64,000 nt of DNA from Kiritimatiellia bacterium (GCA_018001225.1 JAGNIJ010000006.1:29188-93187); one strand, 5' to 3'. Counted from the stretch's first letter, positions 38,685-63,903 are shown. Program-made: numbers and translations. The notes: generated from the letters alone by a model not told the origin.

Positions 38685-38715
38685 GACCGGCATTGAAGTT
38701 TCCGGCCCGTCCCGT

Positions 38716-40552: not shown

Positions 40553-40735
40553 GGCTGTCTCCTTTGTTGGTCCACTCGCTTGAAACCCGTATACCGCTTT
40601 CCCGCGGCTGAATCAACACGCATCGGTTTCCGCACGGTTAGACGGCGGCCCGTCCGGATCATTCAAAAATGCCGGTTGCCCTCCCGGCGTTTTGTGCTAA
40701 AGTCCCCCGGTTTGCGGCCCGAAAGGCCGCCGGGC

Positions 40736-40808
40736 GACCCCATCATCTAGAGGCCTAGGATACCAGGTTTTCATCCTGGACACACGGGTTCGAATCCCGT
40801 TGGGGTCG
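40736..40808 (+). tRNA. tRNA-Glu (anticodon TTC)
   Basis: GACCCCATCATCTAGAGGCCTAGGATACCAGGTTTTCATCCTGGACACACGGGTTCGAATCCCGTTGGGGTCG. The 7-bp acceptor, D-arm, anticodon loop TTTTCAT and T-loop GGTTCGAATCC resemble E. coli tRNA-Glu. No encoded CCA. Confidence 0.8.
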
Positions 40809-40871
40809 TTCTTCAATGCGGCGGGCGGGCGCGAGTCGGACGTCCGCCGATTCCACGGGAAAGGTGCGAGC

Positions 40872-47346: not shown

Positions 47347-47421
<75 letters not shown>

Positions 47422-47630: not shown

Positions 47631-50600
47631 ATGAGGCGCACTTCATATAGCGTGGGGAGTGTGGTCTGCCGTGGCGGGCTGTTGCTGGGCCTGTGCGTGG
47701 CGCTGGCCGGGCCGGCGGCGGGCGAGGTGCTCTTCCAGGAGGACTTCGAGAGCGGTATCCTGGCGCCCTGCTGGGCGACAAACTCCACCGGCCAGGGACG
47801 CCTCCGCGTCACCGAGGACTGGACGCCCGCGGGCGGCGTCCGGCACGTGGTGATGGACGATTTTCAGAGCGACCTGGTCTCCTCCCGGAACGAACTGGTC
47901 CTGACCGTGGACCTCGGCGGGCAAAGCAATGTCGTTTTGAGTTTCCAGCACAAGTCGCTCAACGACGAGGATCACGAGATGCCCGACTCGTTCGGCGGCA
48001 GCCATGATTCGGACGGCGTGGCCGTCAGCGACGACGGCGGCACGACCTGGCACAAGATCCAGGGCCTGACCTCGTCCAATTTCACAGCCTCCGGCTACAA
48101 GTCGTTCGAGGTGCCGTTGACCCCGGGCGCGGCCTGGTCCCTGGTCGACGATTTCAAGATCAAGTTCCAGCAGTACGACGACTCGCCGGCAGAGGAGGAC
48201 GGGTTTGCGCTTGACGACATTCTCCTGGAGACGGTTTCCACGGCGCCCGGCGCGGACCTGACCTTGACCCTGGGGGCGCTGTTCTCCGGGCAGGGGCTCG
48301 CGGTTTCGAACGAGTACCCGCTGCTGTTGACGCTGGTGAACAAGGGGCCGCGGGAGGCCGTCGACGTCACGATCACCAACCGGCTGCCCGCGGGCGTCGA
48401 ACTCGTCACGGCCACGCTGGGCTACGAGGTCGATCCGGTCGGCCATGCCGTCCTATACCGCCTCGCGGAAATGGCCGCCGGCCAGACCTCCAGGTTCTGG
48501 ATGATCTGTTCGCCGGGGGTGACCGGCCTCTGCGTGTGGACGTCGGTCGTGACCTCCGCCGGCGCGGATACGAACGCCGCCGATAATACCGCGGCGTACC
48601 AAACCACGTTCGGGCCCCGGGGGGAACCCGCCGCGGATATCGGAGTTGAGGTCACGCTGTCCGATGCGGCCTGCCTTTCCCAGCCGTTCACCAACACGGT
48701 ACACTTGGAGAACTACACCGCCGAATACGTTTCCAACGTCCTGATCGTCAGCGAGTTCTCGGCGCCCGTGGAGATCCTGGACGGCTATTTCCGGGCCCAC
48801 AGCAACCAGCTGTGCAGTTCGCTCACCCTGACCCCTTCGTGGGGCGCCTTTTTCTCGTACCGGGTGCGGGCGACCCGGGAGGGCCTGCTGACGAACATCG
48901 TGCGGATCAGCGCGGCCCGCTCGCTGGCCTCCACGAACGGGCTGGTTTTCACCAATGTGATCCAGATCATCCCCGACTCGTCCTGGGAGCAGGTCCTGGA
49001 CGGCTACTGCGAGGGGCGCTACCTGGCCGGCGCCTATTCCGGCGGGGCGGACGACAGCCAGCCGGCGCTGGCGGACATGGACGCCGACGGCGACCCGGAC
49101 GCATTCATCGGCAGCGCGGACAAGCTGATGTATTACCGGAACATCGGCACCTCCAACGCGCCGGCGTGGGCGCCGCCCGTGCTGGTCCGACGGTTCTGGT
49201 CTAACGAGCGGCATGCCCCGGCCCCCGCGGACCTGGACGGGGACGGCGATCTCGATCTGCTGGTGGGCCGGCTCTGGGGAAACCTGATGCTGATCGAAAA
49301 CGAGGGCACCGCCACCAACGCCGCCTGGGGGGAACCCCAGTACAGCTACGGCGGCATCGACGTTGACTCCACCAGTGTCCCGGCCCTGGCCGACGTGGAC
49401 GGCGATGGCGACCCGGACCTTTTTGTCGGCAACGGCGACGGCGACATCCTCGTGTACACCAACACCGGGACCGCCGCCTCGGCCGCCTGGAGCGGGCCGT
49501 ACACCAACTTCCCGTGCCCGATTCCCAATTACGCGTACGCGGCGCCCCGGCTCGCGGACCTGGACGGCGACGGGGATTTCGATCTCGCGGCGGGCTACGA
49601 TCCGTATCCTTCACGGACCAACGCCTTCTGGCTCTACTGGGCCAACACCGGGACCGTCTTCCAGCCGCGGTGGGCGCCGTTCGCGACGCAGGAACTCGGG
49701 GTCGCCGCGGCGCACTACTTCGCCTCCTTCGCCCCGGCGTTTGCCGACCTGGACGGCGACGGTGACCTGGACGCCTGTATCGGCCAGTCGCAAGGCCGGC
49801 TGGATTTCGTGGCGAACCTGGGGCAGGCGACGCAGGCGGTGTGGCTGGGCCGGGGCGAACGGGTTTTCCTGCTGGACCTGCCCTCCCCGCAGATCGCCGG
49901 CGGCGACCTGGACGGCGACGGGGACGGCGACCTGCTGGTGAAGGGCCCGCACGACCCGCACCTGTGGCTGTACGAGAACGCGGGCACCCCCCTGCTGCCC
50001 ATCTGGCACCTGGCCACCACCAACTACCTGAACTGGACCGGCGGAGTCATTTACGGCATGACGTTCTGCGACATCGATGCCGACGACGATCCCGACCTGC
50101 TGGTCAACACGGCGGATCTCCTGGACGACACCCGCTGGATCATCATGTTTCTGGAAAACACCGGGACGGCGGCCCAGGCCTCCTGGGCCGCCCCGGTTCA
50201 TGACTACCTCGTCCTGAACGCCGCCACGGGCCATATGAACTACGGCGCGGTGGCGGCGGGCGACATGGATGACGACGGCGACTTCGACCTGTTCATCAAA
50301 GGATGGATCACCAACGGGCCCTTGCTCTACATCCAGAACACCGGGACGGCCGCCGCGGCCGCCTGGGCCCCTCCCGCGGATCCCGGAGTGGCCTGGTTCG
50401 GGGGGAATTACCATACGCCTCTGATCCTGGACATGGACGAGGACGGCGACCACGACCTGATCGGCATGACGGGCAGGGATTGGGTGTTCTACCCGAACAC
50501 CGGCGACGCGCAGCAGCCCCGGTGGTCGCTTCCGAGGCGTTTGTATGCCCCGGTGGACCCGTTCGGCCTCAACGATTTTGTGCAGTCCGGCGCCGCGATG

Positions 50601-53600
50601 GACCTGGATGCCGACGGCGATCTCGACCTGCTGTTCGCCACCGCGGAGGGCGGCTTGCTGTTCTACCGGAACCAGGCGGAGAAGCTGCAGGTGATCCCGG
50701 GGCAGCGGCCGCTGGAGCCGGGCGCGGGCTGCGATTTCAACCTCACGAACGGGTCGCCGGCCGCCTGGCAGTTCGTCGTGAACCGGAGCGGCGGAACGCT
50801 GGACCCGGCGACCGGCGCCTACCAGGCCGGCCCGACGCAGGCCCTCGACATCGTCGAGTCCCGCCTCGCGGACGGCCGCTACGGCCGGGCGTTCGTCCAG
50901 GTGATCAGCAACAGCCTGTCGGCCGGCCAGTCCCGGGCCATCGTGATGGCCGGCAGCAAGACCGCCGTGCTGACCGACGACCCGGCCTGGGAGGCGACCG
51001 ACTACCTGGCGGACCTGGCCTTCAACGCGCTGCGGGCCCGCGGCTACAGCAAGGGCAGCATGGCCTACTTGAGCCCCATGGTGGGACAGGACGTGGACGG
51101 CGACGGCTACCCCGACGTGACCCGGGCGACCACCCGGGCGAACGCCGAGTGGGCCTTCCAGACCTTCGCCCCGGGCGCGTCGAATCTCTTCGTCTACCTA
51201 GTCGACCACGGCGCCACGAACGAGGGCGGCGGATACTTCCGGCTGAACTCGACGGAGATTCTGGCGGCCACCAACCTGTCCGCCTGGCTCGACGGCCTGC
51301 AGGACGTTCACGGGATGGACGTGACCGTGGTGCTGGACTTCTGCCAGGCCGGCAGCTTCCTCGCACCCCTGGCGTATACCGGCGCCGCCGCGCGCATCGT
51401 CATCGCCGGCGCGGGCCCCGCCGAGGCCGCCTACTTCGTGGCGGGCGGGCTCGTGAGTTTTTCCGAGGCGTTCTTCCACGGCGTGCGGCTCGGGCTGGGG
51501 CTGGGCGAATCCTTCCGGGTGGCCCGCCGCGCGATGAGCGATTACCAGGACGCCTGGCTCGACGCGGACAAGGACGGCCGCTTCGACGAGGGCGTGGACG
51601 ACGCGGCCGGGGCGCTGGACCTGCCGGTGGGCGTGAGCATCGGCGGTGAACAGGGCGCCCCGCAGGTGGGGCTCATTGCGGACAACCAGTACCTGGACGG
51701 CGACAGCGCCGCGACCCTGTGGGCGGCGAACGTCTCCGCCGGGCAGCCGATCGACCGGGTCTGGTGCGTCGTGGTGCCGCCCGGGTATCAACCCGATCCC
51801 GACGTGCCCATCGCGTCCCTGCCCGAGATCGAACTGATCTATGCCGGCGGCCGGTACGAGGCGCAGTACACGGGTTTCGGCCAGGCGGGCACCTACAAGA
51901 TCATCTACTACGCCCACGCGCAGGGCGGAGGCGTGTCCCTGCCGAAGTACGGTTACGTCACGCAGGCCGGCGCGAACGAGCGCGCGATCCTTGTCGCCGG
52001 CGGGACGACCAACCTCGCCCTCTGGACCAACATCAACAGCGTGGCGAACGGCGCGTGGGAGACCCTGTTGGCCCGGCAGTTCACCACCGCCACGGTCTGC
52101 TACTTGAGCATGGACGCGGGGCAGCCGGGCGTGGACGGGGCGGTCTCCCTGGAGGCCGTCGGACAGGCCATCACGAACTGGGCCGGCGATTCGAAGAAGC
52201 TGACCCTGGTCCTCGTGGGCGAGGCGACGAACGATCTCCTGCGCCTCGCCGAGGGCGAGGACCTCGACGCACTCCAACTCGACGCCTGGCTGGACGCGTA
52301 CCAGGAGAGCAACCGGACGGTGATCGCCGCGATGGATTTCGCCGGCGCTGGAAGTTTCATCACCAACATGACCACGCCGCCCGGGCGCGAGCGAATCCTG
52401 ATCGCCGGTGCGGGGCCGGGCGAGCCCGCGGTCTGCGAGCAGTCCGGCTGGATCAGCTTCACCCGTGTATTTTTCAGCCACGTGTTCGACGGGCGCGACG
52501 TGCTCGAGTCCTTCCGGGCCGCGCGGGACATCGTCTTCAACCTCACCCGCGGCGCCCAGGACCCGCAGCTCGACGACAACGGCAACGGCGTGCCGAACGA
52601 GAAGGACGTCGAGGGCGCCGCGGCGCAAGGCGAGTACCTCGGGTCGGCCTTCGTGACCGGCGCCGAGGCGCCGGTGATCGGGGCCGTGACGCTGGACACC
52701 GTGCTGGCGGGCACGAACGCCCTCGTGCTCTGGGCCTCCGAGATCGTTGCGGCCGCCGGCGTGGACCGGGCCTGGTGCGTTGTTGCGCCGCCGTCCGACG
52801 CGGAGGATTCCGCCCTCGTGACCGTGGACCTGGCCTGGTCGGCCGGCGAAAGCCGCTACGAGGCGGCCTGCACGAACTTCACCGAGCCCGGCGTTTATAT
52901 CTGTACGTTTTTCGCCATGGATTACGACGGCGTGATCGGCGCGCCGCGCCAAGCCCAGGTCTTCAGCGCGGACCGGTACGAGCCGGACAACAGCGCGGAC
53001 GACGCCCGGCCCTTCGAGATCGCCGGCGTGCAGGTCCGCAATTTCCACGTCGCCGGCGACGAGGACTGGGTCGGGTTCTTTCTCGTCACCAACTACGTCT
53101 ACGAGCTGCGCACGCGGCAGCTCGGCACCAACGTGGACAGCGTCGTGGACCTGTACCGCGTGCTCGGCGACGGGAGCCTCTCCAACGTCGTGCACCAGGA
53201 CTTGCAGGGCGCGGGGGCCGGCCAGGGCGAGTACCTCCTGCTCGAGCACAGACCCGCGGGCCTGTACCTCGCGCGCGTGACCGCCTACCGGCCGTGGCAG
53301 GCGGGCCTGGGCACGGAATACGAGGTGCGCATCCACGTGCCGGCCGCGCCCTCGACGACCTTCCTCTGCATCCTCGGGGCGGACCTGCACGACTCGGATC
53401 GCTCCCCGCCGGGCGCGGTGGCCTGGGTGGACGGCGCGCCCCACGCTTTCTCCGGCGGCCGCAACTTGATCGAGCTGACGGGGATCGCGGCGAAGACGTA
53501 CACGATTACCGTGACGGCGCCCGGCTGCCTGCCCGCGCAGCACGCCAGCCGGGCCGGGCAGGTGGAGGACCAGAACAACCAGGCCTACGGCAATCCGCGG

Positions 53601-54350
53601 CGGGTGCGGGTCCGCAGCGGGGCGTTCGTCGCCGCGCCCTTCCTCCTGGAGCCCTGCGTGCGGGTCAAGGGTGTAGCGCGCGATGCCGCGACGGGCAAGC
53701 GCCTGAAGAACGCCAGCCTGGCCTTTGCGCCGAATTCCTCGTCCGGCCTGCCGTGCAGCCGGTACGACGGTTACCCGGGCTACGCCAGCTACCGCCGGCG
53801 CTGGCTCACCGCGCCGGACGGCCAGTTCCCGACCAACGTCTACCTGCCGCCGCGCGCGGGATGGCTGACGGTCACGGCCGACGGCTATTCGAACGCCGCG
53901 TTCTATCTGAACCTCGCCTTGCCGAACGGCAGCACGAACGAGGCCGGGGAACTGCCCTGCGGGCCGGTCGTCACCAACGCGGGCGGCTTGCCCAACCGGT
54001 GGATCAACCTGCACTTCGGTGGCCCGACCAATATCCTGGCGATGCAGGACACGGACGAGGACGGGCAGAGCAACTGGAACGAATTGTTGACCGACACCGA
54101 TCCCAACGACCCGGACAGCGTGTTCGCCCTCTTCGGGGCCGGCGTCGGCTTCATGCCGGCCGGGCTGCGGTTGCAATGGAGCGGCGTCGAGGGGCACGCC
54201 TACCAGGTGGCCGGGTGCAGCAACCTGTGGCCCGAGGCCTGGTCCGTCGTCGGCGGGCCGTGGACCAACTGGGACAATTCAGCCATGGAATGGACCAGCC
54301 CCGAACCGGCCGGCCGCGGCCTCTACCGCCTCGAGGAATTCCGGCCGTAG
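47631..54350 (+). CDS. 2239-aa secreted FG-GAP/VCBS-repeat protein with two tandem legumain-like (peptidase C13 / CD-clan) caspase-fold domains and C-terminal beta domains
   Basis: Signal peptide. Many FG-GAP-type repeats (ADLDGDGDLDL...). First domain has the legumain-like His and Cys dyad (FVYLVDHGATNEGGGYF; VVLDFCQAGSF). A duplicated second domain has both replaced (LVLVGEATNDL; AAMDFAGAGSF). Confidence 0.7.
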   Translation: MRRTSYSVGSVVCRGGLLLGLCVALAGPAAGEVLFQEDFESGILAPCWATNSTGQGRLRVTEDWTPAGGVRHVVMDDFQSDLVSSRNELVLTVDLGGQSNVVLSFQHKSLNDEDHEMPDSFGGSHDSDGVAVSDDGGTTWHKIQGLTSSNFTASGYKSFEVPLTPGAAWSLVDDFKIKFQQYDDSPAEEDGFALDDILLETVSTAPGADLTLTLGALFSGQGLAVSNEYPLLLTLVNKGPREAVDVTITNRLPAGVELVTATLGYEVDPVGHAVLYRLAEMAAGQTSRFWMICSPGVTGLCVWTSVVTSAGADTNAADNTAAYQTTFGPRGEPAADIGVEVTLSDAACLSQPFTNTVHLENYTAEYVSNVLIVSEFSAPVEILDGYFRAHSNQLCSSLTLTPSWGAFFSYRVRATREGLLTNIVRISAARSLASTNGLVFTNVIQIIPDSSWEQVLDGYCEGRYLAGAYSGGADDSQPALADMDADGDPDAFIGSADKLMYYRNIGTSNAPAWAPPVLVRRFWSNERHAPAPADLDGDGDLDLLVGRLWGNLMLIENEGTATNAAWGEPQYSYGGIDVDSTSVPALADVDGDGDPDLFVGNGDGDILVYTNTGTAASAAWSGPYTNFPCPIPNYAYAAPRLADLDGDGDFDLAAGYDPYPSRTNAFWLYWANTGTVFQPRWAPFATQELGVAAAHYFASFAPAFADLDGDGDLDACIGQSQGRLDFVANLGQATQAVWLGRGERVFLLDLPSPQIAGGDLDGDGDGDLLVKGPHDPHLWLYENAGTPLLPIWHLATTNYLNWTGGVIYGMTFCDIDADDDPDLLVNTADLLDDTRWIIMFLENTGTAAQASWAAPVHDYLVLNAATGHMNYGAVAAGDMDDDGDFDLFIKGWITNGPLLYIQNTGTAAAAAWAPPADPGVAWFGGNYHTPLILDMDEDGDHDLIGMTGRDWVFYPNTGDAQQPRWSLPRRLYAPVDPFGLNDFVQSGAAMDLDADGDLDLLFATAEGGLLFYRNQAEKLQVIPGQRPLEPGAGCDFNLTNGSPAAWQFVVNRSGGTLDPATGAYQAGPTQALDIVESRLADGRYGRAFVQVISNSLSAGQSRAIVMAGSKTAVLTDDPAWEATDYLADLAFNALRARGYSKGSMAYLSPMVGQDVDGDGYPDVTRATTRANAEWAFQTFAPGASNLFVYLVDHGATNEGGGYFRLNSTEILAATNLSAWLDGLQDVHGMDVTVVLDFCQAGSFLAPLAYTGAAARIVIAGAGPAEAAYFVAGGLVSFSEAFFHGVRLGLGLGESFRVARRAMSDYQDAWLDADKDGRFDEGVDDAAGALDLPVGVSIGGEQGAPQVGLIADNQYLDGDSAATLWAANVSAGQPIDRVWCVVVPPGYQPDPDVPIASLPEIELIYAGGRYEAQYTGFGQAGTYKIIYYAHAQGGGVSLPKYGYVTQAGANERAILVAGGTTNLALWTNINSVANGAWETLLARQFTTATVCYLSMDAGQPGVDGAVSLEAVGQAITNWAGDSKKLTLVLVGEATNDLLRLAEGEDLDALQLDAWLDAYQESNRTVIAAMDFAGAGSFITNMTTPPGRERILIAGAGPGEPAVCEQSGWISFTRVFFSHVFDGRDVLESFRAARDIVFNLTRGAQDPQLDDNGNGVPNEKDVEGAAAQGEYLGSAFVTGAEAPVIGAVTLDTVLAGTNALVLWASEIVAAAGVDRAWCVVAPPSDAEDSALVTVDLAWSAGESRYEAACTNFTEPGVYICTFFAMDYDGVIGAPRQAQVFSADRYEPDNSADDARPFEIAGVQVRNFHVAGDEDWVGFFLVTNYVYELRTRQLGTNVDSVVDLYRVLGDGSLSNVVHQDLQGAGAGQGEYLLLEHRPAGLYLARVTAYRPWQAGLGTEYEVRIHVPAAPSTTFLCILGADLHDSDRSPPGAVAWVDGAPHAFSGGRNLIELTGIAAKTYTITVTAPGCLPAQHASRAGQVEDQNNQAYGNPRRVRVRSGAFVAAPFLLEPCVRVKGVARDAATGKRLKNASLAFAPNSSSGLPCSRYDGYPGYASYRRRWLTAPDGQFPTNVYLPPRAGWLTVTADGYSNAAFYLNLALPNGSTNEAGELPCGPVVTNAGGLPNRWINLHFGGPTNILAMQDTDEDGQSNWNELLTDTDPNDPDSVFALFGAGVGFMPAGLRLQWSGVEGHAYQVAGCSNLWPEAWSVVGGPWTNWDNSAMEWTSPEPAGRGLYRLEEFRP

Positions 54351-54384: not shown

Positions 54385-56142
54385 TCAGAAGTGCTTGATG
54401 CAGGAGACGAAGACCTGGTGCTCGGTGACGTCGGTGCGGAGGTTCTCCGCCGGGACCAGGCTGCCGAGCACGTCGTCGCCCCGCGTGTAGACGTAGGCCA
54501 CGTCGAGGATCCAGCGCGCGGGCTTCTTCCCGAGGGCCACGCCCGTGCCCACGCTGCCGCTCCAGTACTGGTCGGGCTCGCCGATCGCCGGCCGCTCCTC
54601 CCACGCCACGCCCGCCCGCAGCGGGATCTCCACCCGCGGGAACACGAGCAGGTATTCGATCCCGCTCCGCACCGCCCACGTGTCGTCGAGCGGGTGCTCG
54701 CCGTGCGGGCTGCCGTCGAGCGGATTGATCTTTTCCTCGCCCTCGGCCTGGAAGGCGAAGTCCGACCAGCGCGTGTGGTTGACGTCCAGCGACGTGTACA
54801 GGCGGTCCGTCCAGCGCCACACCGCGCCCAGCGCGAAGGCCGCCGGGAAGGTGAACTCCACGTCCTTGGAAACGAGGCTCTCGGTGGACGTCACGTCCAG
54901 GACGCGCGTCCGGGCGGCGTTGTAGGTCGTCGCGGTGTCCCGGATGGTCTTGGTCTGTTCCGCGTCGGCGGTCCAAGGCAGATCCGCCGCGCCGCCGAGG
55001 CTCAAGTGCCGCGACACGGTCCACAGGAAGCCCAGCGTCGCGTTGAACCCGCACAGGTCGTCGATCCGGTTCTCCTCCTCGTACACGCCGTCCACCACGA
55101 TCCCGGACGAGTCCTCCGAGAAGGACCGCTCGGAGAAGTCGGGGAACGCGCCCGAACTGGAGAAGGGGATCTCGGGGAAGGGCGGGGGATATCGGATCAC
55201 GCCCTCGTACTCGTACGTCGAACTCGTCACGCGCGTGTCGCGCCGGGCGCTGTCCAGCGTGGACGAGCCCGTGTAGCGGGCCGTGGTCTTCGAGCGGATG
55301 TCCCGGTTCGGCATCGGGCTGTCCTGGTACAGGTTCAGCGAAAGCCCCGCGGCCAGGTTCGGCAGGATCTCCACCGCCATCGCGGGCGTGACGGCGTCGA
55401 TGATGCCCTGCTGTTCGAAGTCCAGCCCGGTCAGCAGGTCCGACCGCAGGATCTCCTGCAGCGCGCTGGTGTGGCGCGTGGTCAGGCGAGTGGTGAAGGT
55501 GACGGAGGCGGTGACGCCCTCCTCGAGCACGCTGTCGAAGCGGTCCACCTGCGTGGCGGTGTCCACGCGGGTCTCGGTCTTTCCGCCGGCCGCCGGCCGC
55601 GCGCCTTCTTTCGCCGTGGCGGTGAACTCCTGGGTGAAGTCGTAGGCCTCCTGGTAGTTCAGGGCGAAGACCACGTTGCGGTTGAAGAGCGTGACGGGAT
55701 AGGCGCAGCTGAAGTAGTTCAGGTTCTCGTTGCCGTACTCGTTGACCCCGACGATGAAGGCGTCGGAATCGGAGTTGTTTTCGTTCCGCTCGCGCGACGA
55801 GCGGACCATGATGGAGGCCTCGGGGCGCTCGAGCTGGATCAACCCGGCGGGATTCCACGAGGCCGCCGTCGCGTCGTCGGCGACCGCCGTGAACGCACCG
55901 GCCAGGCCGAGCGCCCGCGCGCCGGACCCACTGGGCAGCGGCGCGGAGAAGATGCTCGGCGGGCGAAAGGCCGGCGACGACGGCGCGCCGCCCTGGACCA
56001 GGGTGCCGCCCGGCCCGGCGTGATCCAGCGAGATGGTCACCGGCCCCGCCGGCGTCTCCACCGTGAAGTCCTCCGCGCGGACGGATCCGCCCAGGAGCAG
56101 CCCTGGCACAAGCAGGAAAACGGCTTTCTTTATCCAGTGCAT
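54385..56142 (-). CDS. FadL/TodX/OMPP1-family outer-membrane beta-barrel transporter
   Basis: Signal peptide, N-terminal hatch motif GLAGAFTAVADDATAASWNPAGL (the NPAG of the FadL family), and a C-terminal aromatic residue (…CIKHF). Confidence 0.65.
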   Translation of the reverse strand: MHWIKKAVFLLVPGLLLGGSVRAEDFTVETPAGPVTISLDHAGPGGTLVQGGAPSSPAFRPPSIFSAPLPSGSGARALGLAGAFTAVADDATAASWNPAGLIQLERPEASIMVRSSRERNENNSDSDAFIVGVNEYGNENLNYFSCAYPVTLFNRNVVFALNYQEAYDFTQEFTATAKEGARPAAGGKTETRVDTATQVDRFDSVLEEGVTASVTFTTRLTTRHTSALQEILRSDLLTGLDFEQQGIIDAVTPAMAVEILPNLAAGLSLNLYQDSPMPNRDIRSKTTARYTGSSTLDSARRDTRVTSSTYEYEGVIRYPPPFPEIPFSSSGAFPDFSERSFSEDSSGIVVDGVYEEENRIDDLCGFNATLGFLWTVSRHLSLGGAADLPWTADAEQTKTIRDTATTYNAARTRVLDVTSTESLVSKDVEFTFPAAFALGAVWRWTDRLYTSLDVNHTRWSDFAFQAEGEEKINPLDGSPHGEHPLDDTWAVRSGIEYLLVFPRVEIPLRAGVAWEERPAIGEPDQYWSGSVGTGVALGKKPARWILDVAYVYTRGDDVLGSLVPAENLRTDVTEHQVFVSCIKHF

Positions 56143-56196
56143 CGGTCTCCTCTTTTATAGCCGAAGCCCGGCGGCCCGGTCATGGAAAAAGACCGG

Positions 56197-57843
56197 CTAC
56201 GGGCCTTTTTCGCCGGCAGGCCGCGGGGCATCGTCGGGGCGCAGGGCTACAAGGGCAGCCGCCACCTGCTGCGCCAGGTCTGTGCAGGCGGCGGGAAGGG
56301 CGGCCTCGTCGAGGGCCACGCTCCACGACTCGAGGATGCGGCTGGTCTCCGTGTCCACGAGGCGCAGCAGGGCGGTCCATCCGTCCCCCTGCCGGGCCAC
56401 GTGGCCCAGCAGCAGCGTGCTGGCCGGGAGGAAGCGGCCGACCTGGAGCCGGGCCTGGGGATCGGCGAGGCTGGAGAATCCGAGGTTCAGTTCCTGTAGG
56501 GCCGCCTCCAGGTTCTCGCGCTCGACCGTGATGATCCGGTCCTGGCGCTGCAGCGCCGCCGTCAGGCCGATCCGGACGAGCGCGGCCATGTTCGCGCCGG
56601 CGGCATCCTCGCCCAGCGGCTCCGGACCGAGACAGGCAATCACGCGCGGCAGGACCCGGTCCGCCGGCGCCGCGGCGGGCGGCGCGGCGCGGACCTGTTC
56701 GATCAGTTGCCGGAGCGCCGCCTGTCGTTCCTGCCGCTTGCCACGGTGAAGGTGGTCCGACACGGCGGCGGTCAGCGAGCCTGGCTCCGGCGCGGCCTCC
56801 GCCAGGAGCCGCGCGGCCGAGTTGGTCGCGCCCTCGCGGTCCAGCCAGAGCGCGTCGCGGGCGGCCTGCACATCAGAGTCCGGCTCCGCGCCGCGCGCCG
56901 CGGCGGGCGCCTCGCCGAAGGCCAGGAGGGCGGGATCGGTGGAGAAGACGAATTCCCCGCCGCCGTGCGACGAAACCGCCAGCGGCCCTATCCGGACCCG
57001 CTGGCCGGTCAGGGCGCCGACTTTCTCGCGCACCGCCAGGGCCATGTCCGACGCCGAGAACACGGGGCTGTTGGGATTGCGGAGAAACTGGAGCAGCGCC
57101 TCGGCGAAGACGCTGTGCTCGAACCCGCTGTCCAGCACCGGCTCCAGGTCGCCGCTGGCGACGAGGTAGCGCGACGGCTGGTCGAGGGCCCGGGCGTACC
57201 AGGCCGCCGCCCGTTCCGCCGCCGGCTCGCCGCCCCGGAAGAGGGACCCGGCGTAGCAGGAATCCGCGATGACGAGGACGTGCCGCGCGCGCGAGGCGTT
57301 GATCATCTTCGTGATCATGCTGTTCCAGATCCAGTCCTCGCGGGCGTCGCGTCCTTCGGCTGTCTTCCGGGCGTCGCACGGGATCCAGAATCCCTCGTCC
57401 AGGGCCTCGTCGTAGGAGCCATGCCCCGCGTAGTAGATCAGCACGGCGTCGCGGTCGTCCAGGGTGGCCAGCTTGTCGAGGGCGGTGAGGATGCCGCTCT
57501 TCGAAGCCCGCGGGCCCGTCAGGAGATCGACGGAAAAACCGTATTGCAGCCGGAGCACCTCCGCCATGGCCTCGGCGTCCGCGCGGGCGGTCTTGAGATT
57601 CTCCCAGCCCCCGCCGGCCCGGGCGGCATAGTCGCCGATGCCGATGACCACGGCGTGGTAGTTCGGCGCGCCGGCGGCGTGTGCCCCGTCCGGCGCGACG
57701 CGGCCCGCGCCGCCCGCCGGGCCCCGGTACGTGGACGCGGAGCGCCCGAGGTAGATCACCAGACCCAGGCAGAGGCCGATCGCCAGCAGGAACGCCGCCG
57801 ACCGGGCCGCCGGTCCCGCCTCCTTTCTGGACTCATCGGGCAT
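56197..57843 (-). CDS. Membrane-anchored caspase (peptidase C14) domain protein with C-terminal LpoB/CsgG-like module
   Basis: N-terminal TM (AAFLLAIGLCLGLVIYLG). C14 domain with the His and Cys dyad (AVVIGIGDY...VLIYYAGHG...FWIPCD...VLVIADSCYAGS). C-terminal region contains a LLRLVDTETSRILESW motif shared with the LpoB-like lipoprotein at 39929. Confidence 0.75.
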   Translation of the reverse strand: MPDESRKEAGPAARSAAFLLAIGLCLGLVIYLGRSASTYRGPAGGAGRVAPDGAHAAGAPNYHAVVIGIGDYAARAGGGWENLKTARADAEAMAEVLRLQYGFSVDLLTGPRASKSGILTALDKLATLDDRDAVLIYYAGHGSYDEALDEGFWIPCDARKTAEGRDAREDWIWNSMITKMINASRARHVLVIADSCYAGSLFRGGEPAAERAAAWYARALDQPSRYLVASGDLEPVLDSGFEHSVFAEALLQFLRNPNSPVFSASDMALAVREKVGALTGQRVRIGPLAVSSHGGGEFVFSTDPALLAFGEAPAAARGAEPDSDVQAARDALWLDREGATNSAARLLAEAAPEPGSLTAAVSDHLHRGKRQERQAALRQLIEQVRAAPPAAAPADRVLPRVIACLGPEPLGEDAAGANMAALVRIGLTAALQRQDRIITVERENLEAALQELNLGFSSLADPQARLQVGRFLPASTLLLGHVARQGDGWTALLRLVDTETSRILESWSVALDEAALPAACTDLAQQVAAALVALRPDDAPRPAGEKGP

Positions 57844-59872
57844 AGATCACGTCTCCTTCAGCCAGGCCGGCCGCCGCGGCCGGGGGGCTCACTTTCGCCT
57901 GGGCCCGCTGGGCATAAACCCTTGATATGCATAGCTCAACCGCCTTCTCCGCGTGGAGCCGCACCGTGCATTCGGCCAGGCCCCCGCGTCCTTCGCCCGG
58001 CCCGTCCAGTACCAGGAACCGCATGCCGGGTTTCAGGCCCTGCGCGGCGCCGATCCCCACGGTGGCTATGTCGCTGGAGGCCGAGAGAATCTTCCCGTCC
58101 ATCAGGGGAAACTGCTGCTCGATCTTCATCGCCAGGCCCTCGACGCGGTCGCGCAGGTCCTTCTCGGGCGCCGGCACGTAGACATCTTCGGCGCACAGGA
58201 TCTCGCCGCTGGCGGAGTCCACGACGCGGCTGAAGATCGTCAGGCTTTCGCCCTGCGGGATCAGCAGCGTCAGGGCGAGCAACTCGGCGGGGACCAGCTT
58301 GCCGATGCGCAGCGCGGCCCGCGGGTCGGCCAGGTCCGACGCGCTCAACCGCTGTTCCTCGATCAGCGCGCCCCAGCCGTCCGCCCGCTCGAGCACCCGG
58401 AAGCGCGGCGGGTGCAGCAGCAGCTCGTGCTCCATCAGCCGGCCGACCTGTTCGGCCCGCGCGTCCACGACCGGCTCCGCCGCCGCCGCGGTGCTGACGG
58501 GCGATACGCCCAGGCTCAAGCGGTAGGCCTCGTCCAGGTACTCGGGGTCCTGGCCGATCACGACGCACTGTTCGCGGTTCCGGTGTCCGGCCCGGTCCAC
58601 GGCGACCACCTCGAACACGTTTGTGCCCGGGTCCAGCGCCAGCCGCCGGGCGAAGTGAAACTGCACGCAGCCCCGCGAGGCCTCGGGCAGCAGTTCCTCG
58701 CCGTTGATGGAAAGGGAAGTCAACCCTCCGCCGTCGGAGGTCGTGCCCTCGAGGTGAAACTCGCGGTTGAACACGCGGGTGCGGAGCGGCGTGTGCAGCC
58801 GCAGGCTGGGCCGGAGCCGATCGCCGCTCTCCGGGGCCGCGCGTTCCGGGACGTCCGCGCGCCCCTCCGCCGCCCGCGCGGCGTACCTCGGCGCGCGGTC
58901 CCGGGCGACCTCCGCGAAACGGTCCGCCTCCAACAGCCGGTCCAGCGTATTGCCCGCGAAGTCCGCGAGGTGTACCGCCCGCGTCCCGCCGAAAGGCACC
59001 AGGATCTTGAAGTCCGCCGCCTTCCCGTGGCCGGGCTCGAGCGGCCGGCCGTCCACCGACACCTGCGCCAGGCCGAACCGGTCCACGGCCCGGGCCTCGA
59101 CGGCCCACCCGTCCGCCTGCCGGTCCGCCTTGAGAATGGCCAGGCCCGGCGGTTGCCAGTCCGCGGTGACGCTCCAGCGCGCGCTCGTTTCGCGATCGGC
59201 CAGGTCGCGCGCGGCCACGAGGACGATGTTTTCGCCCTCCGCCAGTTCCACGGCCCGCGAGATCGGGACGACCGGCGCCGCCAGTTCGAGGAACAGGGGC
59301 CGGCCGTTGACGGTCACGGCCTGCACGTAGCCTTCCGCGGAGACCCGTCCGGCCACCGTCAGCGTTCGTTCCCGGCTCCAGGCGGGCGGGGGCGGGGCGA
59401 GGTCGATCCGCGGCGGGGGCTGCGCCCGGCCGCGCACGAGCTCAGCGCGCGCGAGGTTCAGGAAGTGCCGGGCGCGGCCGGAAGGCTGCTGCTCCAGCGA
59501 GTGCTCGAGGAAGCGCACGGCGTTGCTCGCCTCGCCGAGCCGAAAGAAACAGATGCCCAACTCGCGGTGGGGAAAGTAGTCGTCGATGAAATGAAACCCG
59601 TACGTTCGCGCGCGCCAGGTGTCGCGCGGGTAACCGTACACGGCGCCGCGCTCCAGGCCCAGGCAGATGCGGAACTGTTGCGCGGCGGCCGCGTCATCGC
59701 CGGCGTAGGACAGCGCCGTGCCGCGCTGGTAGAAGTTCCACCAGGTCTTGTGCCGAGGCGGGGGGGCGGCGTGGCCGGCGCGGGGCGAGGGCGCGCAGGC
59801 CGGGAGCAGCAGGCCGATCGCCGCGGCGGCGCCCGCCGCCGCGATCGACCGGAAAAGGCGCCGGGCATCCAT
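57833..59872 (-). CDS. Large lipoprotein (lipobox LLLPAC) with N-terminal TPR-like region, Ig-like middle and C-terminal LpoB/CsgG-like motif; unknown function
   Basis: Lipobox at residues 22-27. The TIFSRVVDSASGEILCAEDVYV motif resembles the motif in the caspase C-terminus and the LpoB-like protein. 11-nt overlap with the downstream caspase gene. Confidence 0.5.
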   Translation of the reverse strand: MDARRLFRSIAAAGAAAAIGLLLPACAPSPRAGHAAPPPRHKTWWNFYQRGTALSYAGDDAAAAQQFRICLGLERGAVYGYPRDTWRARTYGFHFIDDYFPHRELGICFFRLGEASNAVRFLEHSLEQQPSGRARHFLNLARAELVRGRAQPPPRIDLAPPPPAWSRERTLTVAGRVSAEGYVQAVTVNGRPLFLELAAPVVPISRAVELAEGENIVLVAARDLADRETSARWSVTADWQPPGLAILKADRQADGWAVEARAVDRFGLAQVSVDGRPLEPGHGKAADFKILVPFGGTRAVHLADFAGNTLDRLLEADRFAEVARDRAPRYAARAAEGRADVPERAAPESGDRLRPSLRLHTPLRTRVFNREFHLEGTTSDGGGLTSLSINGEELLPEASRGCVQFHFARRLALDPGTNVFEVVAVDRAGHRNREQCVVIGQDPEYLDEAYRLSLGVSPVSTAAAAEPVVDARAEQVGRLMEHELLLHPPRFRVLERADGWGALIEEQRLSASDLADPRAALRIGKLVPAELLALTLLIPQGESLTIFSRVVDSASGEILCAEDVYVPAPEKDLRDRVEGLAMKIEQQFPLMDGKILSASSDIATVGIGAAQGLKPGMRFLVLDGPGEGRGGLAECTVRLHAEKAVELCISRVYAQRAQAKVSPPAAAAGLAEGDVIYAR

Positions 59873-59887
59873 GTCTTGCTCCCCGGG

Positions 59888-60691
59888 CTAGAGGGCCGCC
59901 TCGGGGCGGCGCGCGCGGACGAGGTCCTCCGCGACCCGCTGCCCGAACTCCGGCAAGGCCCGCGAAAACGCCTCGGCGTTCTCGAAGCTGTGCGACCAGC
60001 GGAACACCAGGGTGTCCTCCCCGGGCCGGAAGGCGTCCACCTCGATGGACAGCATGTTCTCCGGCAATTCCTGGAGGCGGGTGGCGAGGCGCCACTCGGT
60101 GCGTTTTTTCAGCAGCGAGCGTGGCGCCGTCTTCCCCAGCGCCTGTTCGTACTGCGCGCCGATCTCGGCCTTCAGGGCGCCGGCGAGCGCCTCCATGGCG
60201 GCCCGGCGCGCGGCGTCGTCGCCGGCCGGGGCCCCCCGGTACTGGGCGGCCTCGATCCGGTCCGTCTGCCAGGCGAGGGTGGGGGAGAAGTAGTTGCGCG
60301 CGCCGAGGAGGACCAGCGCGCAGGCCGCCAGGGCGGCGACGGTCTGCAGCGCGCGCCAGGGCTGCAGGAGCCAGAGCCGCGCCTCGCCCGGAAAGGGCAG
60401 CACCTGGGGCGGCGCGGACTCTTCAGGCGCGGCAGCGCCCCAGCGTCCCGCCTCGGGCGAAGCCTCCCAGGCGCGCAGCACTTTTTTTGCCAGGTCGTCC
60501 TCCGTCACGGCGGCCTGCGTCCCGGCCTCGCGCAGCAGGCGGTCCATGTCCTCGATCTGGCGGTACTGCCGCTGCAGGTCCGGGTTCGTCTTCAGCGCTT
60601 CCCGCAGGCCGGCGGCTTCCGGTTCGTTCAGCTGGCCATGCACCAGAGCCCATAATTTGTCCGATTCGCTCATGTCATGGAGCTCCTTCAC
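59888..60691 (-). CDS. Putative anti-sigma factor (single-pass membrane protein) cognate to the upstream ECF sigma
   Basis: 4-nt overlap (ATGA) with the sigma gene. Cytoplasmic N-domain, one central TM (LQTVAALAACALVLLGARNY), and a periplasmic C-domain. No specific family motif recognised. Confidence 0.45.
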   Translation of the reverse strand: MKELHDMSESDKLWALVHGQLNEPEAAGLREALKTNPDLQRQYRQIEDMDRLLREAGTQAAVTEDDLAKKVLRAWEASPEAGRWGAAAPEESAPPQVLPFPGEARLWLLQPWRALQTVAALAACALVLLGARNYFSPTLAWQTDRIEAAQYRGAPAGDDAARRAAMEALAGALKAEIGAQYEQALGKTAPRSLLKKRTEWRLATRLQELPENMLSIEVDAFRPGEDTLVFRWSHSFENAEAFSRALPEFGQRVAEDLVRARRPEAAL

Positions 60692-61311
60692 AGGCCACTG
60701 TCGCCCGACAGGCGAAAATCTTCCCCGAAAAAGGAATCCAGGCTCAACATTTTCCGCATCTTTTCAAGGCACTTGGCCAGCCTGGAGCCGACCGTGTTGA
60801 TCGAGATGCCCAGTTCGTCCGCCATCTGCTTGTAGGATTGCTGGGCGAAGTAGAAGCGCTGGATGGCGACGCGGCAGAGCTCGTCCACCTGGTCCAGGAC
60901 GCGCTTCACCTGGCCGGCGACCTCGGCGTTGATCACGTCGCGGAGCGGATCCTGCGACCGGTCCGCCATGCGCGCCGTCTCCTCCTCCGGCCGCTGCCCG
61001 TCCCCGGTGGCCAGCGGCACCAGGATCTGCCGCGCGCGGATCTGGCGGCGCACCTCGTCGATGCAGCGGTTGATGCAGATGCGCTTGACGTAGTACTCGA
61101 CGGAGGATTCCTCGTTGAACGACTCGATCGCCTTGAAGAGGGCCAGGCGGATGCCCTGGGCCATGTCCTCCCGCGTCGGGGGCGAAAACCGCCACTTCGA
61201 CCAGGAGACCACCGAGCGGATCAGTTCGTCGTGCTGCGCAAAAAAATCGTCCCACGCCCGGCGGTCCCCGGATTGAAGCCGGCCAAGCTCTTCTGGGCTG
61301 ATGTCGCTCAT
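60688..61311 (-). CDS. ECF-type RNA polymerase sigma-70 family factor
   Basis: Region 2 (…ELIRSVVSWSKWRF…AQGIRLALFKAIESF) and the region 4 HTH (SYKQMADELGISINTVGSRLAKCLEKMRKML). Confidence 0.8.
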   Translation of the reverse strand: MSDISPEELGRLQSGDRRAWDDFFAQHDELIRSVVSWSKWRFSPPTREDMAQGIRLALFKAIESFNEESSVEYYVKRICINRCIDEVRRQIRARQILVPLATGDGQRPEEETARMADRSQDPLRDVINAEVAGQVKRVLDQVDELCRVAIQRFYFAQQSYKQMADELGISINTVGSRLAKCLEKMRKMLSLDSFFGEDFRLSGDSGL

Positions 61312-61398
61312 GCGCTTGGGCCTGGGCGCCCCTTTTGGTCACACGATAACCTCCCGGATTCCCGGTGTATACAGAAAAGTCCCGGCGCGCCGGGTTGG

Positions 61399-61437
61399 AA
61401 AAAAGCGGCCCGCCCCGCGCGGGGCGGGGCGGGCCGC
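61399..61437 (-). terminator. Rho-independent terminator (minus strand) after the beta-propeller gene, just upstream of the ECF sigma promoter region
   Basis: Perfect 14-bp GC stem GCGGCCCGCCCCGC/GCGGGGCGGGCCGC with a 5-nt loop, preceded on the plus strand by A6 (a T6 on the minus strand). Confidence 0.65.
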
Positions 61438-61477: not shown

Positions 61478-63112
61478 TTATTGCAGGGTGTACTGCGCGT
61501 GGAGGATCACGGTGGGGCCGGGGACGCCGGCGGGCAGCGCCCGGGCCGGCCAGACGCGGAACCGGACCGGCATGTTGCCGGCCAGGGCCGAAGACGTTCC
61601 CGAGCCGGTCGCCACGAGCTGCGCGCCGGCGGAAAAGGAATTCTGGTAGATCGAGGTCATGCCGCGCACGTCCCACAACTGCACCCAGAGCACACGGTCG
61701 GCGGCCGGCACCCGCGCATCCCAGGTGATCTCGATGCTGAAGAGCACCGCCGTGCCCTGCCGGACGGAGCCCGGCGTGTACAAGCTGTAGGTCGCCTCGC
61801 GCAGGTTCTCGAAGAAGACCTCGTGGTGGTCGAACTTCAGGACGTCCACCCGGCCGAGATTCCTTTCGTTGTCGCCGTAGGCGGCGTCGATGGCTTCGGA
61901 CCCGGCCGCCAGGTTGCCGTCGATGGCGACGTCGTGAATGTAGGACGCGTACTCGCCGTTCTGCCACGGCAGGTGCTTGTAATAGAGCACGTTCCAGGCA
62001 TTGTAGGCCAGGCCGTAGACGTAGATTTCGCCGGTGGTGGGATCGTCCCACGGATCGGCCAGGGAGCCTACGACGATCTTCGAGCCGCTGACGTCCACCG
62101 AGTCGCCGAAGGCCTGGTAGTCCGCGTCGATCTCGGAGGCCAGGCGCGCCTTCCACTGCCATTGGTTCTGGCTGAACTCGTAGACGCGGGCGGCGCCCCG
62201 GTAGGTGTTCTCGGCGATCGAGCCGACGACGGCCCGCAGCCCGTCCATCGCCACGCTGTGGCCGAATCGGCCGCCCGCGACGACGCCGCGGATCCGCTGC
62301 GCCTGCTGCCACTGGTTGTTGGCCCACTGGTAGGCATAGACGCAGCCCCGCCCGGCTTCCTCTTCGGGCGCGCCGGCAAGGATGCGGGTGCCGCTGATGG
62401 CCACCGAGGTCCCGAACCGGAATCCCGCCTTGGTGACCTTGGCCACCTGGTTCCACGCGCCGTTGACCTTGCGGTAGAAATACACCGATGATTCCCCCGG
62501 CGAGCCCACCACCGCGAACTCGCCGTCCACGCCGACGGAGGCGCCGAACTTCGAGGTCCGGGGCGCGTTCGCGGAAGGCCGCAAGCGCGCGGTGCGCTGC
62601 CAGTTGGCGCCCTCGTAGAGGTAGACCGCGCCCGCGTAGACGTTCTGGTTGTCCTGCGCGGCCGTGGTCATGCGGACGTTGCCCGGCGCGCCCACGATGC
62701 ACTGCGTGCCCTTCAGGTCCACCGCGGCGCCGAAGAACGCCCCGCTCAACACGTCGTTCGCGGCGGAGGACGGCTCCAGCACGCGCGGGCCGGTGTTTGT
62801 CCGCCCGTTGTTGTCCAGGGTGTAGATATGCACCTTGCCGGCGTTCACCGCGCCCCCGATCTGCACGCCCGGCCGGCCGACGGCCAGCCGCTGGCCGGAC
62901 AGCGCGACGGCGTGCCCGAACAGGTGCGTGTTCCTGTTGTAGTCCGGCGCGATGGAGCCCGCGGCCTCCCAGATCTCTTCGAAGGGCGGCGAACCGCCAA
63001 GCGCCCCCGTCGCGGCCATGCAGACCAGCCCGATGCCCGCCAGTACCTTGGTCATCCCTTGCATTGCGAACCTCCCGTCTCCATGTTTTCGCCTCCCGCC
63101 GGAACCCTTCAT
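61478..63112 (-). CDS. Secreted FG-GAP-like beta-propeller repeat protein
   Basis: Signal peptide (MTKVLAGIGLVCMAATGALG). Repeated FG/SV..G....VGAP blades (FGHAVALSGQRLAVGRP; FGASVGVDGEFAVVGSP; FGTSVAISGTRILAGAP; FGHSVAMDGLRAVVGS; FGDSVDVSGSKIVVGS). Start may be at the internal MQGM or MTKV. Confidence 0.6.
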   Translation of the reverse strand: MKGSGGRRKHGDGRFAMQGMTKVLAGIGLVCMAATGALGGSPPFEEIWEAAGSIAPDYNRNTHLFGHAVALSGQRLAVGRPGVQIGGAVNAGKVHIYTLDNNGRTNTGPRVLEPSSAANDVLSGAFFGAAVDLKGTQCIVGAPGNVRMTTAAQDNQNVYAGAVYLYEGANWQRTARLRPSANAPRTSKFGASVGVDGEFAVVGSPGESSVYFYRKVNGAWNQVAKVTKAGFRFGTSVAISGTRILAGAPEEEAGRGCVYAYQWANNQWQQAQRIRGVVAGGRFGHSVAMDGLRAVVGSIAENTYRGAARVYEFSQNQWQWKARLASEIDADYQAFGDSVDVSGSKIVVGSLADPWDDPTTGEIYVYGLAYNAWNVLYYKHLPWQNGEYASYIHDVAIDGNLAAGSEAIDAAYGDNERNLGRVDVLKFDHHEVFFENLREATYSLYTPGSVRQGTAVLFSIEITWDARVPAADRVLWVQLWDVRGMTSIYQNSFSAGAQLVATGSGTSSALAGNMPVRFRVWPARALPAGVPGPTVILHAQYTLQ

Positions 63113-63259
63113 CAGGTCAGGGTTGTCAACCGGCGGGCGGTCTTGAGCGTATCAGTCGGCGCGGGGGCGGGATTCTTCCCGACTTTTTTACGCCCGGCAC
63201 TTTTCCGGTGGGAAGAAACAGCCCTTTCCGACGACTACACAGGCAGAGGAGCAAGAGTC

Positions 63260-63643
63260 ATGAATACCGAGGGGCGGGGCGAGACGGCGGCGACGATCCT
63301 GGTCATTGACGACAATTCGTGCATCCGGAACCTGCTGGCCCGGCTGCTGCAGCGCTACGGGCGGGTCGAGTGCGCCGCGACCGTCGACGAAGGCCTGCAG
63401 ATCTTCAGCCGGTGCGAGCCCGGCCTGGTGATTACCGACTACGAAATGCCGGGGCGGAACGGGATCGACGGCATCCGCGCGATGAAAGCCCTCGCGCCCG
63501 GCGTCCACATCGTCATGCTCACCGGCTCGGCCACGCGCGAGTTGATCGACGAGGCCAAGCGGGAAGGCGCCTGCGAGTGCCTCGAAAAACCCTTCGGACT
63601 GGACGCCCTCCGCGAACTCACCGCCCGCTGCCTGGCGGTCTGA
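63260..63643 (+). CDS. Single-domain response regulator (CheY-like receiver)
   Basis: ILVIDD...D in LVITDYEMPG...K in LEKPF. 127 aa with no output domain. Confidence 0.75.
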   Translation: MNTEGRGETAATILVIDDNSCIRNLLARLLQRYGRVECAATVDEGLQIFSRCEPGLVITDYEMPGRNGIDGIRAMKALAPGVHIVMLTGSATRELIDEAKREGACECLEKPFGLDALRELTARCLAV

Positions 63644-63699
63644 TGCGCCGCCCGCGGGATTGGACATCCGGCCGCCGATCTGCTAGGTGTAGCCCCACC

Positions 63700-63885
63700 A
63701 TGAAATTCAAGGTGGATCACGACCTGTGCATCGGCTGCGGCGCGTGCGAGAGGACATGTCCGGCGGTCTTCGAACTCGCCGGCGACCAATCCAGCGTCAA
63801 GCTCGACCCCGTGCCGCCGGAGCACCAGGAGAAGGCCCTCAAGGCCGAGGACGGCTGCCCCGTCAGCGCCATCTCGCACGAGTAG
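63700..63885 (+). CDS. Small 4Fe-4S ferredoxin
   Basis: CIGCGACERTCP cluster motif plus a distal CP. 61 aa. Start at MKFKVDHD; the ORF-track N-extension is rejected. Confidence 0.65.
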   Translation: MKFKVDHDLCIGCGACERTCPAVFELAGDQSSVKLDPVPPEHQEKALKAEDGCPVSAISHE

Positions 63886-63903
63886 CGCGCAGAAAGGTCC
63901 CGC

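Follow-up and report, generated by a model that had tools for sequence, protein, structure and literature searches.

A conserved gene cassette joining a caspase-family protease to an ECF sigma/anti-sigma pair and outer-membrane partners in Kiritimatiellota and Lentisphaerota: a candidate trans-envelope signalling module

In a 64,000-nt stretch of DNA from a Kiritimatiellia bacterium (GCA_018001225.1, JAGNIJ010000006.1:29188-93187), hereafter the window, five genes on the minus strand encode a sigma factor of the extracytoplasmic function (ECF) type, a single-pass anti-sigma factor, a lipoprotein, a membrane-anchored protease of the caspase family (C14) and an outer-membrane barrel of the FadL/Toluene_X type. 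The gene content and linkage of this cassette recur in many relatives, and our preferred interpretation, to which we assign a probability of roughly 0.85, is that the five genes constitute a conserved trans-envelope signalling module of Kiritimatiellota and Lentisphaerota. More tentatively, at something just under an even chance, the caspase may act within this module as the site-1 protease for the anti-sigma factor. The first-pass annotation of the window had described the same five open reading frames (ORFs), at exactly the coordinates where we find them, and had read them as a candidate envelope-signalling protease system that is not a described regulatory module. The observation holds and the interpretation as a conserved envelope-signalling protease system is largely supported, while the claim of complete novelty needs tempering.

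A five-gene cassette and its conservation

Profile searches bear out four of the five family assignments and leave the anti-sigma factor without a family match. The sigma factor (207 aa; 60688..61311, minus strand) is of the ECF type (group IV), matching Sigma70_r2 (PF04542, 3.5e-8) and r4_2 (PF08281, 8e-8) as well as TIGR02937 (90.8 bits against a cut-off of 42.9), and it has only regions sigma-2 and sigma-4, region 3 having no match. It is followed on the same strand by the genes for the anti-sigma factor (59888..60673), the lipoprotein (679 aa; 57833..59872), the caspase (548 aa; 56197..57843) and the barrel (585 aa; 54385..56142). The ATGA overlap reported earlier between the sigma and anti-sigma genes did not hold up, as the TGA of the sigma gene overlaps a GTG instead. 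This GTG, at 60691, opens the longest ORF of the anti-sigma gene, but the homologs begin at the ATG at 60673 (MSE[ST]DK), which has an AAGGAG Shine-Dalgarno sequence 9 nt upstream, and for this reason the anti-sigma factor is probably a protein of 261 aa, separated from the sigma gene by a gap of ~14 nt. At the remaining junctions the genes are, in turn, 15 nt apart, overlapping by 11 nt and 54 nt apart, with a Shine-Dalgarno sequence at each, and such tight junctions fit a single transcript.

That the five genes form a conserved functional unit is supported by their synteny. The caspase family is large, with members in Kiritimatiellia, Lentisphaerae and Verrucomicrobia-labelled metagenome-assembled genomes (MAGs). 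In four relatives, at 65%, 47%, 46% and 44% identity, the neighbourhood holds the sigma factor, the anti-sigma factor, a lipoprotein with tetratricopeptide (TPR) and Ig-like domains, the caspase and the Toluene_X barrel; one of the four is Tichowtungia aerotolerans, a cultured isolate with a complete genome (cassette locus: CP047593, 1.49 Mb). A scan of metagenomes gave 80 more loci, to which we applied hidden Markov models of the cassette proteins. The full set of five genes is present in 17 loci, down to ~40% protein identity, a count that includes the window and L092, a locus reached by a search begun from a distant representative of the anti-sigma family; in these 17 loci the sigma/anti-sigma pair is adjacent and conserved. 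Among full-length family members the lipoprotein gene is linked to the caspase gene in 27 of 27 loci with enough flank; it lies directly upstream of it, often overlapping, the sole exception being L013, where it is found 4 kb downstream. The barrel gene is either the last of the operon, as in the window, or divergent and 5' of the sigma gene, yet its linkage is always kept. Persistence of linkage through rearrangement is a classic indication that genes are functionally coupled, and a fortuitous adjacency of the five genes can be rejected on these grounds. Conversely, distant relatives that match the caspase domain only (L033-L090, ~40% identity over residues 61-300) are without the cassette, and the association is therefore specific to the full caspase architecture.

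Two further arrangements were seen in the course of this comparison. Among the distant relatives (L034, L084 and others), in soil and sediment metagenomes, 3-4 caspase genes often stand in tandem, unaccompanied by genes for a sigma factor, lipoprotein or barrel. In L013 (5253-9251), the caspase gene is separated from the lipoprotein and barrel genes by an insertion that encodes a Laminin_G_3 protein and a Peptidase_S8 subtilase.

The caspase and its candidate substrate

The caspase consists of a transmembrane (TM) segment (residues 15-33), the C14 domain (61-301), a helical linker (304-386) and an LpoB/TolB-N-like domain (398-536). The C14 domain matches PF00656 over residues 63-276 (1.8e-18, 67.5 bits against a cut-off of 21.4), and the motifs YYAGHG and ADSCYAGS provide the intact catalytic dyad that had been claimed for it, His141 and Cys196, so that both the fold and the dyad are present. 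In 121 of 121 homologs these two residues, and likewise D89 and D194, show no variation. In the AlphaFold2 (AF2) model, with a predicted local distance difference test (pLDDT) score of 82, an N-terminal TM helix is joined by a disordered tether of ~25 residues to the C14 domain, which is followed by the helical linker and an alpha/beta domain. When the protease domain was compared with known structures by Foldseek, the MALT1 paracaspase (E = 8e-10) came closest, along with GSU0716 of Geobacter, while matches were also obtained to caspases 7, 8 and 9. The C-terminal domain matched the C-domain of LpoB and the N-domain of TolB, both of which are periplasmic interaction modules. There is a CsgG-like profile match over residues 427-482 of this domain, but a reading of the protein as a CsgG curli channel was rejected, since only profile positions 44-98 of 210 are matched and the fold is that of the LpoB and TolB domains.

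The caspase domain can be placed in the periplasm, because the relatives in which it is fused to a TIR or kinase domain have one TM segment between that cytoplasmic domain and the caspase domain, because one ortholog is apparently anchored as a lipoprotein, and because the C-terminus has the LpoB/TolB-N fold. Two cysteines of the LpoB-like domain, C404 and C520, are retained by 90% or more of the family, which is compatible with a periplasmic disulfide.

The likely specificity of the protease can also be read from its alignment. D89 aligns with the Asp of the yeast metacaspase-1 Yca1 (N-D-A) and of MALT1 (V-D-V), and D194 precedes the catalytic Cys by two residues. The corresponding pair of acidic residues forms the lining of the S1 pocket in MALT1 and the metacaspases, where it makes these enzymes cut after Arg or Lys, and because D89 and D194 match this acidic pocket we predict an Arg/Lys specificity for the cassette caspase. 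While MALT1, the yeast and plant metacaspases and GSU0716 are its closest matches in both sequence and fold, with the Asp at -2 and the S1-pocket Asp in common, the cassette caspase is only ~18-20% identical to them, and differs in its periplasmic location and its fusion to an LpoB/TolB-N-like domain.

The anti-sigma factor has a single TM segment, as had been described. It gave no match to any Pfam or NCBIfam family in the profile searches. Counting residues from the GTG at 60691, it has a predicted N-terminal helical sigma-binding region (9-76), the TM segment (111-134) and a periplasmic alpha/beta domain (157-261). The N-terminal region is modelled by AF2 as helices 9-17, 23-35, 37-58 and 64-76, and W14 and H18 within it are conserved; the HxxxCxxC zinc motif of the ZAS subclass is missing, as no CxxC follows the conserved H18. 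Word-indexed homolog searches with this protein gave only 5-11 proteins, and an exhaustive profile search was needed to find the family, which comprises 663 clusters at 50% identity (E ≤ 1e-3), ~22-30% identical to the query. Over 150 representatives of these clusters, only eleven positions are conserved in more than 80%, including A122, A123, W141, R152 and G153. The two alanines (60323-60328, minus strand), found in 150/150 and 147/150 representatives respectively, lie in the middle of the TM helix. R152 and G153 (60233-60238, minus strand) are periplasmic and juxtamembrane, the former being Arg in 146 and Lys in 2 of the 150 and the latter Gly in 131. The spacing between A123 and R152, ~29 residues, is held at 27-35 across the family, and the stretch after the R-G pair is rich in A, G, E, D, S and P. 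A basic residue followed by Gly is the sole invariant periplasmic feature of this otherwise divergent protein. The periplasmic domain as a whole has weak Foldseek matches (E ~1e-3) in the TolB-N/FlgT/LpoB/CsgG fold class, and its comparison with the LpoB-like modules of the cassette by hhalign gave no signal (probability 1.4%).

A membrane-tethered periplasmic protease of predicted Arg/Lys type would thus face an anti-sigma factor that has an R-G pair at a fixed short distance from the membrane and an Ala-Ala in its TM helix, and it is this combination that leads us to the site-1 model. The geometry and the conserved residues fit an envelope-signalling caspase acting on the anti-sigma factor; the mechanism itself we infer from them. 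It can be hypothesized that in the resting state the anti-sigma factor holds the ECF sigma factor at the inner membrane, where the caspase would be tethered on the periplasmic side by its TM helix (some relatives would use a lipid anchor instead) and its linker of ~25 residues. A complex of the caspase and the lipoprotein would couple to the barrel, in which the N-terminal hatch, with its periplasmic extension, is the most conserved part. A signal at the outer membrane or the cell surface, in which the adjacent giant surface protein may take part, would activate the caspase, probably through induced oligomerisation, by analogy with the initiator caspases and MALT1. Delivery or gating of this signal would fall to the lipoprotein, by way of the LpoB-like module that it shares with the caspase, and to the barrel, by way of its conserved N-terminal segment. 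The caspase would then make the site-1 cut in the anti-sigma factor after the juxtamembrane Arg152, and a site-2 intramembrane cut near the Ala-Ala would follow and release the sigma factor. In those relatives that have a TIR or Ser/Thr kinase domain, this domain could be an additional or alternative cytoplasmic output of the same periplasmic activation. Taken to its furthest extent, the proposal would define a new class of bacterial transmembrane receptor system, with a periplasmic, oligomerisation-activated caspase and a paralogous LpoB-like lipoprotein under a FadL-type barrel, and with a modular output through ECF sigma release, TIR or Ser/Thr kinase; we regard this extension as speculative and rather doubtful.

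Several findings weigh against the site-1 model. R152 is modelled in a loop that follows a short strand and precedes the first helix of the compact periplasmic alpha/beta domain. This part of the model is fairly confident (pLDDT ~73-88), and the role of the residue could lie in structure or binding and not in cleavage. The cassette itself includes no gene for a site-2 protease, and no common ECF promoter motif is found 5' of the sigma, barrel or giant genes. One locus, L025, has the barrel, the lipoprotein and a TIR-fused caspase without the sigma/anti-sigma pair; the lipoprotein-caspase-barrel core can therefore work without that pair. Finally, the giant secreted proteins that recur beside the cassette leave room for another caspase substrate.

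The ordered surroundings of R152, where no floppy linker is modelled, would also suit a caspase domain that is mainly a non-catalytic sensor or scaffold, for example a dimerising module that binds a ligand or peptide, with the anti-sigma factor controlled by binding or conformational change. The fusion to a cytoplasmic kinase or TIR output in some relatives, which resembles a receptor architecture, agrees with such a role. However, the invariance of the His, the Cys and both S1-pocket Asp residues in all of the homologs is unexpected for a pseudo-protease, and this makes the non-catalytic explanation very improbable.

Outer-membrane partners, giant neighbours and fused outputs

The lipoprotein begins with the lipobox LLLPAC (Cys26), followed by a WWN[FY]YxRG motif, a TPR region, about three Ig-like domains, a CsgG/LpoB-like module and a C-terminus with weak likeness to FlgT_C. 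Its description as a TPR-like lipoprotein stands, the lipobox being accompanied by a match to Glucodextran_B (Ig-like, 3.4e-11), and the TPR matches being weak. Its LpoB-like module and that of the caspase are homologous (hhalign probability 99.5%, E = 6e-23, 31% identity), and the two proteins probably form a complex.

The barrel is confirmed as a member of the FadL family by PF03349 (Toluene_X, 4.6e-12, 45.6 bits against a cut-off of 29.7). After a signal peptide that ends VRA/ED, it has a conserved N-terminal extension of ~35 residues (24-58) and then a hatch-like segment (residues 59-107) with the sequence FRPPSIFSAPLPSGSGARALGLAGAFTAVADDATAASWNPAGL, which surpasses the rest of the protein in conservation by a wide margin, top-residue frequencies being 0.90-0.96. 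Within this segment lies the hatch-like motif GARALGLAGAFTAVADDATAASWNPAGL, which we take to resemble the N-terminus of FadL. Assignment to the PorV/PorQ barrels of the type IX secretion system was considered and rejected, as NF033709 (25.4 against 90) and NF052325 (33.4 against 325) stay far below their cut-offs and match only ~40 N-terminal residues.

Convergent with the cassette is a gene for a secreted FG-GAP/DUF11 protein of 2239 aa (47631..54350, plus strand), and the link noted between such a protein and the cassette recurs in other lineages. The evidence for the legumain-like domains ascribed to it is weak. Peptidase_C13 scores 19.1 bits, below its cut-off of 22.8; the His and Cys are kept in the first domain (~51108-51410, plus strand; DHG...DFCQAGSF), but both catalytic residues are lost in the second, degenerate one (~52113-52415, plus strand; GEA...DFAGAGSF). 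A search of PDB sequences gave no match to the C13-like region, and weak C13 matches recur in the neighbouring proteins of L009 and L010. The C-terminal ~300 aa (53400-54296, plus strand) are held in common with cassette-linked proteins elsewhere, and are all that is left of the neighbour in Tichowtungia, a protein of 317 aa. In at least 14 independent loci a large secreted protein adjoins the barrel gene, and the kinds include FG-GAP/C13-like, PKD/C13-like, NHL, and subtilase plus LamG proteins. A small TPR protein (~185-215 aa) is encoded between the barrel and the large secreted protein in seven loci (L008 826-1590; L009 14306-14863; L016; L019-L021; L025 4049-4693), and is absent from the window.

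These neighbours suggest another role for the cassette, in which the substrate of the caspase would be the giant secreted protein (alternatively the lipoprotein or the barrel) and the giant would be anchored or exported by the FadL/PorV-like barrel, with the sigma pair only regulating expression, under the control of another protease. Such a role in maturation and display of cargo would explain the recurrence of the large neighbours, their common C-terminal region and the small TPR protein placed between barrel and giant, and would be in keeping with the weak PorV-like N-terminal matches of the barrel and with the locus that lacks the sigma/anti-sigma pair. On the other hand, the neighbour is variable, being reduced to 317 aa in Tichowtungia and not evident in L092, and the PorV family scores are 25-33 bits against cut-offs of 90-325. 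The invariant R-G of the anti-sigma factor at its fixed distance from the membrane would also go unexplained. We therefore regard cargo processing as unlikely, if worth bearing in mind, and retain the signalling module as our interpretation.

In many paralogs within the same cassette, the caspase is preceded by a cytoplasmic N-terminal domain, either a TIR or a Ser/Thr kinase, and one TM segment (L025 9287-11770; L008 7055-9430; L009 8001-10865; L026 6107-8971). The TIR domains are of the TIR_2/ThsB_TIR type (9e-24). Such fusions, one of which occurs in the locus L025 that is without the sigma/anti-sigma pair, would be expected if the unit served in envelope-triggered defence or programmed death, with the periplasmic caspase/LpoB-like unit sensing an attack on the envelope, for instance by phage, and triggering a TIR NADase or kinase along with a sigma-driven response. 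ECF/anti-sigma pairs do control defence loci elsewhere (PMC11506125, PMC10028731). Against this, the window caspase has no TIR or kinase domain, and PADLOC returned only a generic caspase model (1.5e-9), with no match for the other six proteins. Viral contigs hold no relatives and plasmids only distant caspase domains in other architectures, so that no association with phages or mobile elements emerges from these searches, and the genes flanking the cassette are of a housekeeping kind (Tat, queuosine, tRNA synthetase) rather than defence islands. The defence or programmed-death function raised by the first-pass annotation thus finds little support, while the TIR-fused paralogs keep it open; overall we judge it to be distinctly improbable.

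Relation to known systems, and the flanks of the cassette

As a signalling module, the cassette recalls the DegS/RseA/RseP pathway. As in that pathway, a single-pass anti-sigma factor would restrain the ECF sigma factor of the cassette, a periplasmic protease tethered to the inner membrane is placed where it could make a juxtamembrane site-1 cut, and outer-membrane components would serve as the input. RseP cuts RseA at a TM Ala-Ala site, exposing a VAA degron, and the TM helix of the cassette anti-sigma factor has an Ala-Ala as well. The candidate site-1 protease here differs from the PDZ serine protease DegS in being a caspase-fold Cys protease (clan CD) and in having its gene within the operon itself, and its partners are a dedicated lipoprotein with a shared LpoB-like module and a FadL-type barrel. 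No relationship in sequence could be detected between RseA and the cassette anti-sigma factor. The FecA/FecR/FecI system offers a second comparison, as the cassette likewise spans three compartments: its barrel has a periplasmic extension, conserved, at the N-terminus, its anti-sigma factor sits in the inner membrane, and its sigma factor is of the ECF type. The cassette also adjoins genes that it may control. It differs in that the barrel is of the FadL/Toluene_X type and not a TonB-dependent receptor, and in having two extra periplasmic proteins, the caspase and the lipoprotein. Profile searches with the cassette proteins gave no TonB_dep_Rec, STN or FecR matches, and the proteins that define the DegS/RseA/RseP and FecA/FecR/FecI systems are all missing from the cassette.

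The pairing of caspases and sigma factors has precedent, and in this respect the novelty claimed earlier has to be reduced. Conserved operons of a metacaspase and a sigma-70-family factor were reported in 2012, on bioinformatic evidence, from Myxococcus, Anaeromyxobacter, Haliangium, Sorangium, Ralstonia and Fibrobacter (PMC3501461). In these, as here, a C14 protease shares an operon with a sigma factor, but the phyla are others, and the mechanism and partners were not described. In the type III-E CRISPR system, the Craspase Cas7-11-Csx29 was shown experimentally to cleave Csx30 and so relieve the inhibition of the ECF sigma factor CASP-sigma (PMC10028731). There too a caspase-fold (CHAT) protease is encoded beside an ECF sigma factor and its inhibitor, and proteolysis of the inhibitor activates. 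However, Craspase is cytoplasmic, RNA-activated and CRISPR-associated, and Csx30 is soluble and unrelated to the cassette anti-sigma factor, whereas the cassette lies wholly in the envelope and has no CRISPR component. What is without precedent is the periplasmic module. Our literature search found no work that combines metacaspase, anti-sigma factor and periplasm, and the ECF reclassification paper, in its main text, mentions neither caspases, FadL or CsgG nor Kiritimatiellota/Lentisphaerota.

Bacterial caspase homologs are abundant and few have a known substrate or role. The cassette offers a testable hypothesis in this regard, with a candidate substrate in the anti-sigma factor, a candidate scissile bond in R152-G153 and a cultured host in Tichowtungia aerotolerans. 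If the site-1 model is true, a caspase would initiate regulated intramembrane proteolysis, adding a new protease class to the few site-1 proteases that control ECF sigma factors; in the wider receptor reading, caspase and TIR signalling would be paired across a bacterial membrane. The TIR and kinase paralogs would then illustrate the coupling of a single sensing unit in the periplasm to different outputs in the cytoplasm, and the module would show how poorly studied phyla of the Planctomycetes-Verrucomicrobia-Chlamydiae (PVC) group, Kiritimatiellota and Lentisphaerota, sense events at their surface.

Upstream, the cassette is insulated by the strong intrinsic terminator that had been noted there (61437..61405, minus strand), with 14 G-C pairs, a 5-nt loop and a T6 tail. 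It lies directly 3' of the upstream FG-GAP gene, which it ends, and is kept in L005, a Kiritimatiellia MAG. Between the terminator and the sigma gene is a block of 50 nt (GCCGGGACTTTTCTGTATACACCGGGAATCCGGGAGGTTATCGTGTGACC; 61337..61386, minus strand) that occurs once in the window and is near-identical in L005, while the proteins of the two loci share only ~65-72% identity; we consider it a candidate promoter or operator. A direct repeat within the block reads CCGGGA...CCGGGA in the window and CCGGCA...CCGGCA in L005, both copies having changed together. Enumeration over 16 sigma upstream regions gave no family-wide bipartite promoter motif. The top motif was present in 5 of the 16, mostly from one clade, against 2-3 in shuffled sequences, and a shared ECF-type promoter was rejected on that account. 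Alignment of the regions upstream of the giant genes was uninformative.

The FG-GAP gene directly 5' of the cassette (61478-63112, minus strand) encodes a secreted FG-GAP_2 repeat protein of 544 aa (4e-31), and further upstream (63150-63900) are a response-regulator gene and a small ferredoxin gene. The cassette of L005 is flanked by the same FG-GAP_2, response-regulator and ferredoxin neighbours, and synteny thus extends beyond the cassette on this side. On the other side, a tRNA-Gly (CCC) gene (47347-47421, plus strand) is found ~210 nt 5' of the gene for the giant FG-GAP protein; the equivalent region upstream in L005 does not align, indicating that this flank is not conserved. Farther away, positions 34000-38000 of the window have a GC content of 0.56-0.62, against a window mean of ~0.68, and no long ORF with high GC at third codon positions was picked at ~34300-38700; foreign origin, an RNA gene or a lack of coding function could each account for this stretch. 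A tRNA-Glu (TTC) gene is located at 40735-40809 (plus strand).

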